From a virus: 11,455 nt of DNA. The position numbers and the translations under genes were made by a program. A model generated the notes under the pieces. That model made no database searches and had not been told where the DNA came from. It was given only the letters and a program-made list of their open reading frames with translations. The first letter of the stretch is position 1. Each line of letters starts with the position of its first letter. Positions 2,312 to 9,539 of the stretch are shown piece by piece. The stretch is taken from UHGV virus genome UHGV-0118720, one strand, 5' to 3'.

Positions 2312-4510
2312 ATGGCAGAAAAAAAGATGACTGACTGGCATCGCAAGGTGCTGTGCAACTTTGATAATGCCTGGTCAGCAACGCAGGATATGCGTGAGCA
2401 GATTATTGAGGCTCAACGTTTCGTCAGGGTGTCCGGCGCACAGTGGGAAGGTAGCACAAACGCTGGTTACTCGTTTGATGAGGGCAGGTTTGAGCATTAC
2501 CCGCGCTTTGAACTGAATAAGATTGCCCGTGAATGTGATCGCATCATTGGCGAGTATCGACAGAATCGCATCAGCGTTAAATTCAGACCGAAGGACGATA
2601 AGGCATCGGAAGCGTTAGCCGAAAAGATGAACGGCAAATTCCGCGCTGATTATCAGGAAACATCCGGTGGCGAAGCGTGTGATAACGCATTTGATGATGC
2701 TGTAACGGGCGGATTTGGTTGTTTCCGCATGTGTGCCGATTACGAAGATGAAATGGATCCGAGTAACGAGCAGCGACGCATCAGCCTTCTTCCTGTTTAC
2801 GACCCAGCGACATGCGTCTTCTTCGATCAGGACAGCAAACAATATGACCGCTCTGATGCTATGTGGGCTATGGAAATGTTCTCCATGACGCCCAAAGCGT
2901 TCGAGGCTGAATACCCTGATTCCATCGCGGCAAGCCTTTCTCGAGATGACACTGGCACTCAATATGACTGGTCAACGCCAGATGCCATCTATGTTGGACG
3001 CTACTACGAAGTTCGCATAGAGAAGGTGAAGCTCACGGCGTGGCGCAACCCTGTTAGCGGAGAAACGGCAATCTATGATGAAGAGCAAATCAAAGATGTT
3101 GTTGACGAGCTGACCGATGGCGCATTCGAACTGATTGGTGAGCGGACAGTGAAGAAACGCCGAGTTTATTGCGGTCTTCTGTCTGGTGCTGAATGGCTGG
3201 AAGAGCCGAAGCGTATTCCGGGCGAACATATTCCTCTCATCCCGGTATATGGGCGTCGTTCATTTGTTGATAATCAGGAGCGAATCGAAGGCCACGCAGC
3301 AAAAGCGATGGATGCGCAGCGTCTTGAGAACCTGATGGTTTCCATGATTGCAGATAACGCTACTCAGGCTGGCGGTGATGGCATTCCTGTAGTTGATGTT
3401 GACATGATTCCTGGTCCTCTCGCCACTCATTGGGCAGAGCGCAACAAAAAGCGCCCGGCGTTCCTGCCGATGGTCAGTCTGAAAAACAAAAACGGAGATA
3501 TTACTGCGCAGGCTCAGGTCAGCAGTTATACGCCTCCGACACAAATGCCTCCAGCTCTTGCCGGGCTATTGCAGTACACCGGAACGGCTATTCAGCAAAT
3601 TACAGGTGCGTCGCAGCTTGAGAACATGCCGAGCAACGTCGCCACCGATACCGTTGATAGCATCTTTAACCGGATGGATACGCAGTCCTATATCTACATG
3701 GACAACATGGCTAAATCCATGCGTCGCGCTGGCGTTGTGTGGCTTTCTATGGCGCGTGAGGTCTATGGCAGTGATACGCCGATGCGTATCGTTAATGAGG
3801 ACGGCAGCGATGACGTGGCGCTGATGACTGGTGAAGTGGTTGACCGTCAGACAGGGCAGGTTATCGCGCTTAATGACCTTTCGCAGGGCAACTATGAAGT
3901 GACTGTCGATGTCGGTCAGTCGTTCGCTACTCGCCGTGATGCAACGGTTAAGTCGTTACTTTCCATGCTGGCACTTATCCCGCCAGGAACGCCGAAGCAT
4001 GACCTTGTATCGTCGATGATTCTCGACAATATGGACGGCGAAGGGATGGACGACCTGAAAGAATACAACCGCAATCAGTTGCTTCTGTCTGGAGTTATCA
4101 AGCCGAGAACACCAGAAGAACAGCAGATGGTTGAGCAGGCGAAACAACAACAGGCCAGTCAGCCAGATCCGGCTATGGTTGCAGCGCAAGGTCAGCTTCT
4201 TGCAGGTCAGGCTGAATTGCAGAAAGCGCAGAACGAACAGGCAGCCATTCAGGTTAAAGCATTCCAGGCACAGACTGATGCTCAGGTTGCAGCGGCAAAC
4301 GTTGTGAAAATCCTCGCATCTGCCGATAGCCAGCAGAAATCTGATATCCGCGAGGCTCTGAAACTGCTCGGACAGTTCCAGCAACAGCAAGGAGACAATG
4401 CCCGTGCTGATGCAGAGCTTGTCCTGAAAAGTCAGGCACAGGGCCATGCGCAGCGCATGGACATCAGCAGCATCCTGCAAAAATCAACTCAGCAACAAGC
4501 ACAGCAGTAA
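2312..4510 (+). CDS. Portal protein (P22 gp1-like, with C-terminal helical barrel extension)
   Basis: 732-aa ORF starting 1 nt after the terminase stop. Segments such as KKRRVYCGLL...GEHIPLIPVYG and the C-terminal PEEQQ...DPAMVAAQGQLLAGQAELQKAQN...RMDISSILQ match my recollection of P22 gp1 (about 725 aa). The C-terminus is Gln/Ala-rich and helical. Confidence 0.93.
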   Translation: MAEKKMTDWHRKVLCNFDNAWSATQDMREQIIEAQRFVRVSGAQWEGSTNAGYSFDEGRFEHYPRFELNKIARECDRIIGEYRQNRISVKFRPKDDKASEALAEKMNGKFRADYQETSGGEACDNAFDDAVTGGFGCFRMCADYEDEMDPSNEQRRISLLPVYDPATCVFFDQDSKQYDRSDAMWAMEMFSMTPKAFEAEYPDSIAASLSRDDTGTQYDWSTPDAIYVGRYYEVRIEKVKLTAWRNPVSGETAIYDEEQIKDVVDELTDGAFELIGERTVKKRRVYCGLLSGAEWLEEPKRIPGEHIPLIPVYGRRSFVDNQERIEGHAAKAMDAQRLENLMVSMIADNATQAGGDGIPVVDVDMIPGPLATHWAERNKKRPAFLPMVSLKNKNGDITAQAQVSSYTPPTQMPPALAGLLQYTGTAIQQITGASQLENMPSNVATDTVDSIFNRMDTQSYIYMDNMAKSMRRAGVVWLSMAREVYGSDTPMRIVNEDGSDDVALMTGEVVDRQTGQVIALNDLSQGNYEVTVDVGQSFATRRDATVKSLLSMLALIPPGTPKHDLVSSMILDNMDGEGMDDLKEYNRNQLLLSGVIKPRTPEEQQMVEQAKQQQASQPDPAMVAAQGQLLAGQAELQKAQNEQAAIQVKAFQAQTDAQVAAANVVKILASADSQQKSDIREALKLLGQFQQQQGDNARADAELVLKSQAQGHAQRMDISSILQKSTQQQAQQ

Positions 4511-4600: not shown

Positions 4601-5494
4601 ATGGACCAGATGGCAGAAAACACACCAGAAGTTGAAATCGAACCCGACGCGTCAGAGCAGATTCCTGATGATGTCGAACTGGCTGAAGAAGTCGAAAAAG
4701 CAGATGGCAGTGAGTCCTCAGGAAATGATGCAGAGGAAGATACTGACACTGATGACGACGAATCAGAACAGGAATTCTACTTTGGTGACGAAAAGCTGGA
4801 TTCGCCAACCAGCGAAGATGGCGCAGAGCATGGACTGGTAAAACACCTGCGCAAGACGATTAAAGAGAAAGACCGTGAGCTGAAAGAGCTGATGCGTCAG
4901 TCTCAGAAACCCGTCGAGCAGCAGCCGGTAATCACTCAACCACCGCGAATGCCAAAACTGGATGATGAGGACATCGGTTTCGATGAAGAAATCTACCAGC
5001 AACGCATGGCTAAGTGGGCAGAGGATAACGGCAAGTACCAGCAACAGGAGATGGCTCGCAAGCAGAAGGAGCAGGAGCTTCAGGCTGCCTATCAAGATCG
5101 ATTATCCAAATATCAGCAACGTGTTAAGGCTCTCAAAGTTCCTGGCTATCAGGAAGCTGAGCAGGCCGTACTCGAGGAAATTCCCATCGAGACACAAAAC
5201 GCGATCCTGTTTGAGTCAGAGAAGCCGGAAATCGTTGTTCTGGCGCTCGGTCGCAACGCTGAACTGCGCAAGCAACTGGCAGAAGCTACCAACCCCGTAG
5301 CAATTGGTCGTCTGCTGGAACGTATCGAATCGAAGGCCAGAATCATGCCAAAAGCAAAAACCACGGCAGCCACAACCCCGACAGTTAAGGGGAGCAACGG
5401 CGCAGTAATCAACAACCTCGACAAATTGAAAGCCAAGGCGCTGGAAACTGGTGACTGGACGCCGTATTTCGCCGCTAAAAAGGCAAAAAAATAA
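4601..5494 (+). CDS. Scaffolding protein (P22 gp8-like)
   Basis: 297-aa ORF between portal and coat genes, RBS GGGG at 4591-4594. It has a strongly acidic N-terminal third, charged helical middle, and a basic C-terminal coat-binding-like tail (DKLKAKALETGDWTPYFAAKKAKK). Size is close to P22 gp8. Confidence 0.85.
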   Translation: MDQMAENTPEVEIEPDASEQIPDDVELAEEVEKADGSESSGNDAEEDTDTDDDESEQEFYFGDEKLDSPTSEDGAEHGLVKHLRKTIKEKDRELKELMRQSQKPVEQQPVITQPPRMPKLDDEDIGFDEEIYQQRMAKWAEDNGKYQQQEMARKQKEQELQAAYQDRLSKYQQRVKALKVPGYQEAEQAVLEEIPIETQNAILFESEKPEIVVLALGRNAELRKQLAEATNPVAIGRLLERIESKARIMPKAKTTAATTPTVKGSNGAVINNLDKLKAKALETGDWTPYFAAKKAKK

Positions 5495-5512: not shown

Positions 5513-6766
5513 ATGGCTAACCAATTAGCAAAAGACCTTGAAATCATGTTCGAAAACTACGTTGAAGGCTTTGAGGCCGCCTGCGTAGTTTCCCGTAACG
5601 CTAAAAAATTCCGTCCCGGTGATACAGCAATGCAGCGAGCAGGTGATGTTCTGTATCGTCCGCAGCATTACCACATGAACATTGAAGAAGGCCTCGATCT
5701 CAGCAGCAAAACGCCAACAGCACTGGTTCAGCGCCTTGTTCCTTCTGTGTTCAAGGAGCCGAAAAACATTCTGTACACTCTGGATGCGCGTGAAATGCGT
5801 GACCCTGAGCATAAAACTGAAGCTGGTCGCGCCGCAGGTATGCGCCTTGCTGCACAGATTGACTCTGACCTGATTTCCATGGTCACGCAGCGTGCTACTA
5901 ACGTGATCACAATGGCTGACTCAACCACTGGTTCACAGGGCCGTGATTTGTGGAACTGTGCGGCAGGTATTGATGCCACCATGACGGCGATTGGTGTACC
6001 ACAGGGTATCAACCGCCGCTCTTTCTGGAACCCCTTCAACTACAAAGACCTTGCTGGCGAGCTTGGTCACCGTGCCTATGCTCAGGGCGCAACCCTGACA
6101 GCATACGAAAAAGCGCAGATCCCTCCGGTTGCTTCCTTTGATAGCTACAAGACCGATATTTCTGGTCGTGTTCCGAAGGGTACAGCAACTTCCCTGACGC
6201 TGGCGGCTGAACCTGCGCACAAGGTTGAAGCGAAAGATGCCAACGATATGCCAGTGGATAACCGACAGGGGACCATTACGGTATCTGCATCTGGTTTGCA
6301 GGTTGGCGATGCGTTCACCATTGCAGGGGTGAATTCCGTACACCAGATCACCAAAGATACCACCGGGCAGCCGCAGGTATTCCGCGTTCTGGCAGTAAGC
6401 GGAACGACAGTAACTATCTCCCCGAAAATTCTGCCGCCTGACAACGCGGATGTCGCCAGCCGACCATATGCAAACGTTGATGCTAACGCGGCAAATGGTG
6501 CAGCAATTACCATTCTCAACAAAAATGCCGCACCGGCTAACCTGTTCTGGGCTGATGGTTCTGTTGAACTGATGTACGGCAAACTGGCGTTCCCGACTGG
6601 TCAGGGTCCACAGGTAATGACAGCAACCACCGAGCAGGGCGCTACGCTGATCATGTCTTACGCCTTCGACCACATCAAAGGTGTAACCACAGCTCGTTTC
6701 ACCACTCTGTACGGTTGCTCGGTACTGGTTCCTGAATATACGGGCATCGTTATTGCCGGGCAGTAA
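5513..6766 (+). CDS. Major coat (capsid) protein (P22 gp5-like)
   Basis: 417-aa ORF with RBS GGAG at 5501-5504, following the scaffold gene and followed by a strong hairpin terminator. Size and position match P22-like coat proteins; a conserved-looking motif FWADGSVEL is present. Confidence 0.9.
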   Translation: MANQLAKDLEIMFENYVEGFEAACVVSRNAKKFRPGDTAMQRAGDVLYRPQHYHMNIEEGLDLSSKTPTALVQRLVPSVFKEPKNILYTLDAREMRDPEHKTEAGRAAGMRLAAQIDSDLISMVTQRATNVITMADSTTGSQGRDLWNCAAGIDATMTAIGVPQGINRRSFWNPFNYKDLAGELGHRAYAQGATLTAYEKAQIPPVASFDSYKTDISGRVPKGTATSLTLAAEPAHKVEAKDANDMPVDNRQGTITVSASGLQVGDAFTIAGVNSVHQITKDTTGQPQVFRVLAVSGTTVTISPKILPPDNADVASRPYANVDANAANGAAITILNKNAAPANLFWADGSVELMYGKLAFPTGQGPQVMTATTEQGATLIMSYAFDHIKGVTTARFTTLYGCSVLVPEYTGIVIAGQ

Positions 6767-6807: not shown

Positions 6808-6996
6808 ATGGCACGAACAATGCTCTATAAGCCTGGCAACATGATCACCTGTGGTCAGTTTGCTGTCGATTACATCATTGTTGATGACGAAGAAGTTAAA
6901 TCTCACCTGAAAAAAGGTTGGGTAAAAACTCCTGAAGAAACCGCAACGAAGCAAAAAGTGGCTAAGGCGGAAGAAGATGGCGAAAACGAAGGGTGA
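6808..6996 (+). CDS. Hypothetical small protein (62 aa) between the coat and gp4-like genes
   Basis: ATG at 6808 preceded by GGGAGAAGG (6797-6805). The ORF track's TTG start at 6769 lies inside the terminator hairpin and is unlikely. The 3' end overlaps the gp4-like gene start by 20 nt in another frame. C-terminus is Lys/Glu-rich. Confidence 0.45.
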   Translation: MARTMLYKPGNMITCGQFAVDYIIVDDEEVKSHLKKGWVKTPEETATKQKVAKAEEDGENEG

Positions 6997-7438
6997 TCTC
7001 GTTCTAAAGGCTTTACGAAAAGCCGGGCTGTATTCCAATGCCACGTTGACAGATGCTGACCCTCAGGCAATTGAAGATGCCATTAATGACCTCGAAGACA
7101 TGATGGCAGCATGGCAGGCGAAAGGTATCGAGCTTGGGTATCAGTTTGCTGATACAGAAAACGGCATCATGCCGTTACCTGACGATGATTCAGGTATCCC
7201 TGCATGGGCAAATGATGGCGTCGCTTTGAAACTCGCTGTGCAAGTGTGCATGGATAACGTCATTCAGCCGTCGGATGCTCTCCTTACCGCTGCTGACTGT
7301 GCATATCAGACAATCTGTATCGCTTTAACCAAAATACCACCACTTGAGCGGCGAAATGACATGCCTCGCGGTAGTGGTAACAAAAGCGCGTTTACGTGGA
7401 ATCGGTTTTACATCGAGAAAGATGATCCGAGTACGTGA
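6977..7438 (+). CDS. Head-to-tail adaptor / portal-closure protein (P22 gp4-like)
   Basis: 153-aa ORF. The N-terminus KTKGDLVLKALRKAGLYSNATLTDADPQAIEDAINDLEDMMAAW and C-terminal PRGSGN motif match my recollection of P22 gp4. It is syntenic between the coat and gp10-like genes. Confidence 0.88.
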   Translation: MAKTKGDLVLKALRKAGLYSNATLTDADPQAIEDAINDLEDMMAAWQAKGIELGYQFADTENGIMPLPDDDSGIPAWANDGVALKLAVQVCMDNVIQPSDALLTAADCAYQTICIALTKIPPLERRNDMPRGSGNKSAFTWNRFYIEKDDPST

Positions 7439-7447
7439 GGTGAATAA

Positions 7448-7552
7448 ATGCCGATTCAGCAACTTCCGCTTATGAAAGGTGTCGGCAAAGATTTCCGAAA
7501 CGCTGACTATATCGACTATCTGCCAGTGAATATGCTGGCAATTTTGATATAA
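7448..7552 (+). pseudogene. Truncated 5' remnant (34 codons) of the gp10-like tail-hub gene, displaced by the insertion
   Basis: RBS GAGG at 7437-7440, then [31 protein letters not shown] followed by ILI and a stop. The first 31 codons align codon-for-codon with the start of the full-length gene at 8121; similarity ends exactly at 7540/7541. Confidence 0.8.
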
Positions 7553-7553
7553 T
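7545..7553 (+). promoter_or_regulatory. Candidate extended -10 promoter element (TGaTATAAT) for the endonuclease gene
   Basis: TG at 7545-7546 and a perfect TATAAT at 7548-7553, about 36 nt upstream of the endonuclease ATG. No good -35 is seen, which extended -10 promoters often lack. Motif match only. Confidence 0.35.
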
Positions 7554-7588
7554 AAGTACATGAAAAATCGAAACTTTAAGGAGTAGAT

Positions 7589-8173
7589 ATGCTTTCTGAG
7601 AATGCTAAAGATATACCTGGATTTGAAGGTGTTTATGCCGTAACAGAAGATGGCAGGGTATATTCTCACTCACGTGTTGTTAAGGCTGCGCATGGCAGCA
7701 CGCAACTCAGAAAGGGGCGCTGGTTAAAGCCTAAAATCAATCAGGGAAGGGTGCTTTATAATATCGGAGCAAAATGGACTTTTGCCCATCGAATCGTTGC
7801 AATGACATTCCTGCCAAATCCTGAAAACAAGCCTCAGGTAAATCATATTGATGGCAATCCACTCAATAATAACGTCAATAATCTTGAGTGGTGCACTCAA
7901 AGCGAAAACATCAAACATGCATACGCCACCGGATTAAAGAAGCCAATCAAGTTTTTCGGAACCAAGCACCCAAAACACAAGTTGAGTGATGACGATGTTC
8001 TTGCAATCAAGTCATCAAAAGAAAGCTTGTCAGTAATTGCGGCTAAGTACGGGATATCTAAGACCTGGGCAAGTAGGCTAAAGCGTGATGCTAACTGGGT
8101 TCATATAAAGGTTGATTCCAATGGCAATACAACAACTACCACTAATGAAGGGATTGGGGAAAAGTGCGGTTAA
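7589..8173 (+). CDS. HNH homing endonuclease (NUMOD4-like N-terminal motif, HNH_3-type catalytic core, C-terminal HTH-like DNA-binding module)
   Basis: Own RBS AAGGAG at 7578-7583, 5-nt spacer. Motifs: IPGFEGVYAVTEDGRVYS (NUMOD4-like), HRIVAMTF...VNHIDGNPLNNNVNNLEWCTQSENIKH (HNH core), LSDDDVLAIKSSKESLSVIAAKYGISKTWASRLKR (HTH-like). The last 18 codons overlap the gp10-like gene start out of frame. Confidence 0.85.
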   Translation: MLSENAKDIPGFEGVYAVTEDGRVYSHSRVVKAAHGSTQLRKGRWLKPKINQGRVLYNIGAKWTFAHRIVAMTFLPNPENKPQVNHIDGNPLNNNVNNLEWCTQSENIKHAYATGLKKPIKFFGTKHPKHKLSDDDVLAIKSSKESLSVIAAKYGISKTWASRLKRDANWVHIKVDSNGNTTTTTNEGIGEKCG

Positions 8174-9539
8174 TGCTGATTATATAGACCAACTTCCAGT
8201 CAATCTTTTAGCTACGCCCAAGGAGGTGTTGAATTCATCGGGATATCTTCGCTCATTCCCGGGCATTGCAAAACGTTCTGATGTGAACGGTGTATCTCGC
8301 GGCGTCGAGTACAACATGGCGCAGAATGCTGTTTATCGTGTGTGTGGTGGCAAGCTGTACAAAGGAGAAAGTGAAGTCGGTGACGTTGCCGGAAGTGGTC
8401 GCGTATCAATGGCGCATGGTCGTATATCACAGGCGGTAGGGGTTAACGGGAAACTGGTCGAGTATCGCTATGATGGCACGATTAAAACCGTCTCAAACTG
8501 GCCTACAGACAGCGGATTCACGCAGTATGAGTTAGGATCAGTCCGCGACATTACGCGCTTACGTGGGCGTTATGCGTGGTCAAAAGACGGCACTGATTCA
8601 TGGTTTATCACTGACCTTGAAGACGAATCGCATCCTGACCGTTACAGCGCACAATATCGCGCAGAATCGCAGCCTGACGGCATCATCGGCATAGGAACAT
8701 GGCGAGACTTCATCGTCTGCTTTGGTTCATCGACGATTGAATATTTCTCCCTGACTGGCGCAACCACAGTTGGTGCTGCTTTGTATGTCGCACAGCCATC
8801 ACTGATGGTGCAGAAAGGCATTGCCGGGACTTACTGCAAAACGCCATTCGCTGATTCGTATGCGTTCATCAGCAATCCGGCAACAGGTGCGCCGTCTGTA
8901 TACATCATCGGCTCCGGTCAGGTGTCACCAATCGCCAGCGCGAGCATTGAGAAAATCCTCCGCTCCTACACTGCTGATGAACTGGCTGATGGTGTGATGG
9001 AATCGCTGCGATTTGATGCTCATGAGTTGCTGATTATCCACCTTCCGCGCCATGTTCTCGTGTACGACGCATCTTCAAGCGCCAATGGTCCGCAATGGTG
9101 TGTGCTGAAAACAGGTCTGTATGACGATGTGTACCGCGCTATCGACTTCATTTACGAAGGCAATCAGATAACGTGCGGCGATAAACTGGAGTCCGTGACC
9201 GGGAAATTGCAATTCGACATCAGCAGCCAGTACGACAAGCAACAGGAACACCTGCTGTTTACTCCACTGTTCAAAGCGGATAACGCCAGATGCTTCGATC
9301 TGGAGGTGGAATCATCCACTGGCGTAGCTCAGTACGCCGACCGCCTGTTCCTCTCTGCAACCACTGACGGCATAAATTACGGGCGTGAGCAGATGATTGA
9401 ACAGAATGAACCGTTCGTTTACGACAAGCGTGTTTTGTGGAAGCGTGTCGGGCGCATCAGGAAAAACATTGGCTTCAAATTGCGCGTTATCACGAAGTCA
9501 CCTGTCACTCTGTCTGGCTGCCAGATAAGGATTGAGTAA
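8121..9539 (+). CDS. Tail hub / needle-socket protein (P22 gp10-like), full length with a chimeric N-terminus
   Basis: 472 codons from ATG 8121; the ORF track's 8112 start is TTG and less likely. From about codon 32 ([19 protein letters not shown]...) to the end it matches my recollection of P22 gp10. The first 31 codons are a recoded variant of the upstream remnant. Confidence 0.9.

Follow-up and report, generated by a model that had tools for sequence, protein, structure and literature searches.

A mobile endonuclease cassette in gene 10 of a P22-like prophage, its ribosome-binding site and the extended -10 box in its leader

How is a selfish gene expressed once it has settled in the late operon of a temperate phage, and could it be active while the prophage is repressed? 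The question is raised by a stretch of the virus genome UHGV-0118720 (11,455 nucleotides (nt), hereafter the window; all coordinates refer to it, and to the + strand unless stated), which gene order and Pfam matches identify as the late (virion) operon of a Lederbergvirus, a P22-like prophage of the CUS-3/Sf101 type. Here, a gene for an endonuclease of 194 amino acids (HEG-A, 7589-8173) follows a 34-residue remnant of gene 10 (7448-7552) and overlaps the start of a complete gene 10 of 472 codons (8121-9539). An earlier note on this DNA had proposed that the insertion junction carries a perfect extended -10 element and a strong ribosome-binding site (RBS), so that transcription of the endonuclease could do without the late operon and could occur even in a repressed prophage. 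On balance, we favour a different emphasis, namely that the segment ahead of the gene is the leader of a mobile cassette with a real RBS, that the -10 box is accessory, and that late read-through is the secure route of expression.

The HEG-A product matches the Pfam families HNH_3 (E=1.9e-10) and NUMOD4 (E=1.3e-8), both past the curated cut-off, and RefSeq and GenBank annotate it as an HNH endonuclease. Over residues 7-116 it aligns with I-HmuI of Bacillus phage SPO1 (PDB 1U3E, E=1e-8), with the catalytic motifs VNHIDGN and LEWCTQSEN of HEG-A lying against VDHKDGN and LRWVTQKIN of I-HmuI. In both enzymes, a beta region resembling NUMOD4 at the N-terminus is followed by an HNH catalytic core and, at the C-terminus, by a helical part that binds DNA. 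I-HmuI is an intron-encoded nicking enzyme, whereas HEG-A is free-standing; cleavage or nicking of the cassette-free allele by HEG-A is putative. The site is filled in 18 of 5,426 complete E. coli genomes, in 26-27 IMG/VR contigs and in Salmonella phage UPF_BP1, and is empty in about 860 E. coli genomes as well as in Sf101, CUS-3, HK620, Sf6 and P22. Among 32 filled copies (the window, 27 IMG/VR contigs, three E. coli chromosomes and UPF_BP1), nucleotide diversity (pi) was 0.006-0.007 across the cassette, from 7541 to about 8247, as against 0.048 in the remnant flank and 0.062 in the flank formed by the body of gene 10. This 8-10 times lower diversity points to a homing element that has recently swept through diverged backgrounds. 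The copy in E. coli ES5 (L008, 1652-2235) carries a 1-nt deletion at the equivalent of 7824 that splits the endonuclease gene into two open reading frames (ORFs), although its -10 box and RBS are undamaged; such a frameshifted copy is the usual decay stage of these elements. Taken as a whole, it is very probable that 7541-7588 is the 5' leader of a free-standing I-HmuI-type cassette in gene 10 and that its RBS is real.

Alignment of the empty site of Sf101 with four filled copies places the left junction at 7540|7541, where gene 10, which encodes the packaged-DNA stabilisation protein, is broken after codon 31. The cassette, comprising the leader, the endonuclease gene and a foreign 5' end of gene 10, extends over about 0.7 kb from 7541 to 8245 (the right edge being approximate, 8240-8250), and has a GC content of 39-45% compared with about 50-53% in the flanks. 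The remnant ORF opens with ATG at 7448 and consists of 31 native codons followed by ILI and TAA (7550-7552), with a second in-frame TAA at 7553. Its residues 4-31 match positions 1-28 of Pfam Phage_stabilise (E=7e-11), its native part is identical to the start of Sf101 gene 10 at 88/93 nt, and RefSeq labels its equivalent in other genomes a pseudogene. The rebuilt gene 10, a full-length Phage_stabilise match (E=7e-299), starts 53 nt inside the endonuclease ORF. Its first ~120 nt (8121 to about 8240) are borne by the cassette, and because only 61 of the first 93 nt agree with the empty-site allele despite a conserved protein, this 5' end is a foreign allele from another lineage and not a lightly recoded copy. 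The difference from the empty allele at 32/93 nt, junction surroundings included, lends indirect support to the idea that a carrier would resist its own enzyme. A remnant paired with a replacement would fit the product of illegitimate double-strand-break repair with limited homology, of the kind that Parker, Belisle and Belfort reportedly described in 1999 for intron homing in T4. The rebuilt gene is preceded only by AAGG (8108-8111), 9 nt upstream, while the dead remnant retains the stronger GAGGTG; thus, the insertion may reduce or change translation of gene 10.

The RBS claimed in the earlier note is borne out, and comparison with related genes adds to it. The Shine-Dalgarno sequence AAGGAG (7578-7583) is separated by a 5-nt spacer from the ATG at 7589, and AAGGAG followed by ATG at a distance of 4-8 nt occurs once in the window versus 0.45 times expected. 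It belongs to a family-conserved leader, ATCGAAACTTTAAGGAGTAGAT (7567-7588), which is invariant across the 32 copies. Two sister endonucleases occupy other sites of the late operon. HEG-B (177-181 amino acids, 55% identical to HEG-A) is found in the same orientation at the gp10/gp26 junction, ahead of the needle gene, in many P22-like prophages of IMG/VR (L006 383-928; L007 2246-2791; L035-L046; L054-L058); the shared leader opens directly after the TAA stop of gene 10, and the end of HEG-B overlaps the start of the needle gene. HEG-C (172 amino acids, 47% identical) likewise has this orientation and is flanked by the late-leader hairpin and the holin gene in lambdoid/P22-like prophages (IMG/VR; L047-L052, 1501-2019). 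The leader reads ATCGAAACT(A/C)AAGGAGTAGAT in HEG-B and G(G/T)GGAGTAGCTC ahead of the ATG in HEG-C, whose start region is G(G/T)GGAGTAGCTCATG. All three proteins begin MLSENAKDI, with GGAGTAG(A/C)T(A/C)ATG at each start. As the Shine-Dalgarno sequence and the start are thus conserved in HEG-B and HEG-C at other late-operon sites, the RBS of HEG-A is supported by comparison.

The kinship of HEG-A and HEG-B is closest at the left end. When 7567-7740 of the window was set against L006 362-530, the two were found to share, nearly letter for letter, all of the 22-nt leader ATCGAAACT..AAGGAGTAGAT and ~155 nt at the start of the gene, a stretch that includes 66 consecutive identical nt; beyond it, identity falls to about 55%. 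This mosaic suggests that a shared N-terminal module has recombined with different C-terminal DNA-binding parts. Phages with HEG-B also have a diverged 3' end of gene 10, ending ..SGLSIRVT-stop in place of ..SGCQIRIE-stop. Three IMG/VR contigs with the HEG-A leader (L092, L098 and L112) match the HEG-B leader pattern as well, so that one phage may carry both cassettes.

Translation of the endonuclease is not fused to the remnant, because three stop codons in frame (7550, 7553 and 7577) lie between the two ORFs, in agreement with the uncoupling proposed before. Could translation instead be gated by RNA structure, as in T4-type systems such as I-TevI, segB and Aeh1 mobE? No hairpin hiding the RBS was found in folds of either read-through or box-started RNA. 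The leader segment 7560-7625 is unstructured (-5.3 kcal/mol, z=+0.8), and the Shine-Dalgarno/AUG region folded without the upstream junction hairpin reaches about -6 kcal/mol (z +0.6 to +0.8), no better than shuffles. A terminator-like scan did pick out a hairpin at 7521-7540, TGCCAGTG-AATA-TGCTGGCA followed by ATTTTGAT, which consists almost entirely of gene 10 sequence and folds at -11 kcal/mol (z=-2.8); it is not specific to the junction, since the empty site makes another hairpin of similar stability. An outer stem, in which UAUAUCGA (7510-7517, remnant) pairs with UUGAUAUA (7544-7551, overlapping the -10 box), lengthens this hairpin and is probably fortuitous; for the whole of 7500-7610 the minimum free energy is -22.5 kcal/mol (z about -2). 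Neither the junction hairpin nor the outer stem covers the Shine-Dalgarno sequence; thus, there is no T4-style gate and any transcript should be translated. The leader also contains a mini-ORF of eight codons (7560-7586, ATG..TAG, MKNRNFKE-stop), which finishes 2 nt before the endonuclease ATG. It would be leaderless on a transcript from A7560, has no counterpart upstream of HEG-B or HEG-C, and is probably fortuitous.

Which transcript, then, would be translated? By direct reading, TGaTATAAT (TGATATAAT) occupies 7545-7553 and overlaps the TAA of the remnant at 7550-7552, exactly as had been noted. TGn stands directly before TATAAT and all six positions of the hexamer match, as expected of an extended -10 element for sigma-70, and consensus extended -10 promoters function without a -35 element. 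Standard sigma-70 spacing predicts a transcription start at A7560, 7 nt past the box. The assignment of the element to the insertion junction holds only in part: there is an insertion, but the box was not created by the junction, because with the break at 7540|7541 it consists wholly of insert DNA, 5 nt inside the mobile cassette, and gene 10 contributes only a weak -35 and the spacer. The best -35-like hexamer, GTGAAT in remnant DNA (7526-7531), lies 16 bp upstream and matches TTGACA at 3/6 positions, which is why the box is missing from a two-hexamer scan with a 4-of-6 rule. That scan detected 2 sigma-70 sites in the window, compared with 11.2 +/- 2.9 expected from dinucleotide shuffles, and the late operon is therefore depleted of promoter-like sites. 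With a crude sigma-70 weight matrix of hexamer frequencies, the box is the top of 22,838 positions (11.2 versus 9.1 for the runner-up). By the same matrix, the endonuclease leader is the one strong exception to the depletion of promoter sites in the late operon.

At the level of the whole window, a single TGNTATAAT on the two strands is unremarkable (shuffle mean 0.23; 41 of 200 shuffles have at least one); within the 48-nt leader, the chance of a perfect box at cassette composition is about 0.0014. The box is kept in 31 of the 32 copies, the remaining one having TATGAT through the change A7551G, and two copies carry T-to-C at 7557. Diversity in the leader (pi 0.007) is on a par with that of the ORF (0.006), and selection on the box is undetectable within HEG-A because the sweep has left the copies about 99.4% identical across the cassette. 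Beyond HEG-A, conservation of the box above neutral expectation was not seen in relatives: it is absent upstream of HEG-B and HEG-C, where the best promoter score is 6.7 or less versus 11.2 at HEG-A. Some members of the family do carry canonical promoters of their own, as a distant relative (L070/L071, 38% identity) shows, upstream of its start at 1501, both a Shine-Dalgarno sequence and a textbook promoter, TTGATA-17 nt-TGGTATAAT.

The origin of the box offers a further clue. TGATATAAT falls within a 26-nt stretch (7541-7566) that is seen only in the HEG-A cassette and lies outside the block of homology with HEG-B. A candidate source is the coding end of gene 4, whose product gp4 is encoded ahead of the remnant (6977-7438). 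Read in frame, 7540-7563 gives AAT TTT GAT ATA ATA AGT ACA TGA, or NFDIIST-stop, and the last 9 nt of this putative relic, AGTACATGA, match the end of the window's own gene 4, AGTACGTGA (7430-7438), at 8/9 positions. The peptide fits the C-terminal pattern of gene 4, D-[D/I]-[P/I]-[S/N]-[T/A]-stop, of which ..KDDPST-stop and ..GDIPNA-stop are the allele types. The gene 4-like peptide end and the layout of HEG-B, where a stop codon is followed by the leader, suggest that the cassette once separated gene 4 from gene 10 in a donor phage. We consider it fairly probable that the 26-nt stretch is a relic of a donor gene 4 coding end, in which case the -10 box would be coding sequence for Phe-Asp-Ile-Ile. 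A derivation from the 3' end of gene 10 was also considered and dropped, as the 3' end of gene 4 fits better.

The proposed history would run as follows. In an unsampled donor phage, the cassette may first have lodged after gene 4 and ahead of gene 10, with the leader ATCGAAAC following the gene 4 end. Illegitimate repair would then have fused the last 7-8 codons of the donor gene 4 to codon 31 of the recipient gene 10, leaving the 34-residue remnant ORF and a foreign replacement for the 5' end of gene 10, and the block from 7541 to about 8245 would subsequently have swept nearly unchanged through diverse P22-like backgrounds by homologous repair. A tblastn search of phages with the foreign N-terminus of gene 10 returned only UPF_BP1, and the exact leader pattern had no match in GTDB representative genomes. 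Protein-guided loci in the GTDB representatives yielded relatives that reach at most 49% identity across most of the protein, and a degenerate NFDIIST-stop pattern matched in IMG/VR only the known cassettes and three chance sites that are not at ORF ends.

Against this background, read-through from the antiterminated late operon is the secure route to the endonuclease, in the manner of the promoter-less HEG-B and HEG-C. The hairpin at 7521-7540 together with AUUUUGAU looks like a weak intrinsic terminator. Late transcription in P22 is antiterminated by gp23, and read-through past the hairpin is therefore expected. In addition, the box is likely able to drive some -35-independent initiation by sigma-70 near 7560, which would yield an unstructured leader of 29 nt. 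Any transcription from it in the prophage state would be an accessory and so far unselected bonus. Promoter activity of the box is reasonably likely to be detectable in a reporter, while biologically meaningful expression of the endonuclease in lysogens is rather doubtful.

The most serious alternative holds that the box is a dedicated, selected promoter, that the endonuclease is transcribed apart from the late operon even in the repressed prophage, and that lysogens thereby cut the cassette-free gene 10 of superinfecting or co-resident P22-like phages. Genomes with more than one P22-like prophage bear on this indirectly. A chimeric query, joining the HEG-A-specific segment 7760-8120 to three variants of the 62-mer spanning the empty-site junction (which opens CCAGTGAATATGYTGGCTACACCC), was run against the 5,426 complete E. 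coli genomes. None of the 18 HEG-A genomes has a co-resident empty site, and four have two matching places, namely the STEC306/307/308 clone and ET729, which represent two lineages. As a query made of HEG-A alone still gives two places, both P22-like loci are filled in these strains. As about 2.4% of all gene 10 loci are filled, concordance in both of two separate double carriers has, by our own arithmetic, p of about 6e-4 under independence. Three differently designed queries for the second copy in ET729 all returned copy 1, and for IMG/VR isolate genomes with both a filled and an empty site there was no overlap among the matches listed.

The two copies on the STEC308 chromosome (L320 4826-7876 and L319 7020-9602) are instructive. 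One sits in a truncated prophage remnant beside cscB without any upstream late gene or late promoter, yet its ORF is intact; the remnant is identical at 3001/3001 nt to that of Eco_23-3571, a strain without a second copy. The other lies in an intact-looking prophage at 3.51 Mb. Between the two there are no differences in the 707 nt of the cassette and none in the next 100 nt, about 6% in the body of gene 10 (+759 to +1869), and identity again in the 5' part of the needle gene. The pattern hints at conversion between elements in cells that survive as lysogens, which would need expression of the endonuclease outside the lysis-committed late programme. It should be noted, however, that as a test of direct exchange the comparison is weak evidence, since only about 100 nt of extra identity are involved and the cassette with its type-2 gene 4 fragment is nearly invariant everywhere. 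Population structure of the phages, RecA-mediated exchange, or transient late expression during lysogenisation are possible alternatives for the concordance.

Several of these points weigh against the reading that we favour. The chance of about 0.1% for a perfect TGnTATAAT within the 48-nt leader could mean selection, and the concordance of cassettes in co-resident prophages suits expression in surviving lysogens better than purely late, lysis-coupled expression. Further, the presumed donor layout (gene 4, endonuclease and gene 10 without a remnant) was found neither in phages nor in GTDB representatives nor in IMG/VR, so that the relic origin rests on the 8/9-nt match and the architectural parallel. 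A dedicated promoter would also draw on the rank of the box as the top site in an operon depleted of promoter-like sites, on the unstructured predicted leader with its strong Shine-Dalgarno sequence, on the intact ORF of the STEC308 remnant copy and on the promoter of L070/L071. However, HEG-B and HEG-C have the same leader and no promoter, the box lies in a segment that reads as gene 4 coding sequence, and the equal diversity of leader and ORF gives no sign of constraint. Moreover, the first + strand terminator candidate after the endonuclease gene is a weak one inside gene 10 (8701-8717), and a promoter firing in a lysogen would, for want of a terminator, also transcribe gp10, the needle and the ejection genes. 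With the concordance explicable in the other ways named above and the STEC308 flanks weakly informative, a dedicated promoter is the less likely explanation. In a bolder version, the endonuclease would have an extended -10 promoter of its own that fires while the prophage is repressed, and also in decayed remnants that have lost the late promoter, with lysogens constantly cutting, converting and perhaps excluding cassette-free phages, and possibly with self-repression through the retained half of the homing site over the -35 and spacer; this we regard as unlikely.

At the other extreme, the box may be functionally silent, a by-product of an AT-rich relic and of stop codons, possibly silenced by H-NS, with the endonuclease expressed from late read-through only. 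The leader indeed has stops in all three frames (TGA 7545, TAA 7550, TAA 7553, TGA 7561, TAA 7577 and TAG 7584), and the AT-rich cassette holds all three TATAAT hexamers of the window. The poor -35 and the failed two-hexamer scan, the promoter-less sisters and the natural TATGAT variant, which occurs alongside an intact endonuclease gene, are consistent with silence. On the other hand, a consensus extended -10 promoter needs no -35, the match is perfect and outscores every other site of the window, and the co-resident concordance is harder to explain by expression in lysing cells only. Complete silence is thus improbable in our view. Finally, the possibility that the endonuclease is intron- or intein-encoded, with gene 10 restored by splicing and the leader being intron sequence, can be set aside with near certainty: although many I-HmuI-type enzymes are intron-encoded, 1U3E being one from SPO1, a search of 6900-8700 at E<=1 gave no group I/II intron and no other Rfam family beyond one chance match on the opposite strand, gene 10 is complete from 8121 with its 5' end duplicated and not split, and the remnant closes with tandem stop codons.

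T4 offers precedents both for and against a promoter of the cassette's own. About half of the free-standing endonucleases of T4 are promoter-less cassettes, while others have a promoter either in the gap that precedes them or within the 3' end of the preceding gene, with segA, segG, mobC and mobD as examples that have their own promoters (PMC2988022). The placement of those four promoters matches the inferred origin of the HEG-A box. As with HEG-A, the seg and mob genes of T-even phages are selfish genes located between or within phage genes in the orientation of their neighbours, polymorphic for presence or absence at a fixed site, co-transcribed with phage operons and equipped with their own Shine-Dalgarno sequence. 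However, the T4 examples use T4 middle or late promoters, whereas the host of HEG-A is a temperate P22-like prophage, in which a host sigma-70 promoter could act in lysogens. HEG-A also differs from the T4 types in having no RBS-hiding hairpin, and its insertion truncates the target and supplies a replacement 5' end instead of leaving a clean intergenic gap.

In Aeromonas phage Aeh1, mobE reportedly divides the ribonucleotide reductase gene in which it is embedded into two functional pieces, and Gibb and Edgell reportedly assigned it late and middle promoters. At HEG-A, by contrast, the 5' piece is defunct and gene 10 is restored in full further downstream. Like HEG-A, mobE is an HNH gene that interrupts an essential phage gene without an intron and bears its own expression signals (Gibb & Edgell 2007, 2009, via PMC2988022); it also has an RBS-sequestering hairpin, which is not seen at HEG-A. 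For I-TevI, autorepression is achieved through an operator that resembles the homing site and overlaps the enzyme's own promoter (PMC2988022). HEG-A similarly retains the left half of its presumed homing site (gene 10 up to 7540) over the -35 and spacer of the putative promoter, but the likeness is purely positional, as the retained half-site follows automatically from the insertion. Phage morons (PMC2629481) resemble HEG-A as extra AT-rich genes in the late operon with a promoter-like element upstream. HEG-A, in contrast, has no terminator of its own, overlaps gene 10 at its 3' end, and is selfish and not of benefit to the host; the epsilon34 genome paper of 2008 reported no morons inside P22-like morphogenetic clusters apart from the ant region (PMC2629481).

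The general kind, free-standing homing endonucleases of phages that may or may not have a promoter of their own, is known already; what is new here is the HEG-A cassette, and in the literature no paper was found that describes an endonuclease like it in a P22-like gene 10. If the box fires in lysogens, a selfish gene would be active in the prophage state and not only during lytic co-infection. It could then spread between co-resident prophages and into incoming phages, and could act as a prophage-encoded weapon against related phages. The picture of homing drawn from T4 would be extended to temperate phages, and the mosaic gene 10 alleles of P22-like phages would be partly explained. If the box is silent, HEG-A would be an ordinary promoter-less cassette and still a clean example of illegitimate repair that leaves a remnant and a replacement 5' end.

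The remainder of the window follows late-operon gene order. Upstream of gene 4 are the terminase (895-2310), portal (2312-4510), scaffold (4601-5494) and coat (5513-6766) genes, and the needle and ejection genes follow gene 10 from 9539 onwards. On the minus strand, a MicA-like Rfam match covers 7331-7395 with 23 bits versus a gathering threshold of 41 (E=0.96) and was treated as chance.

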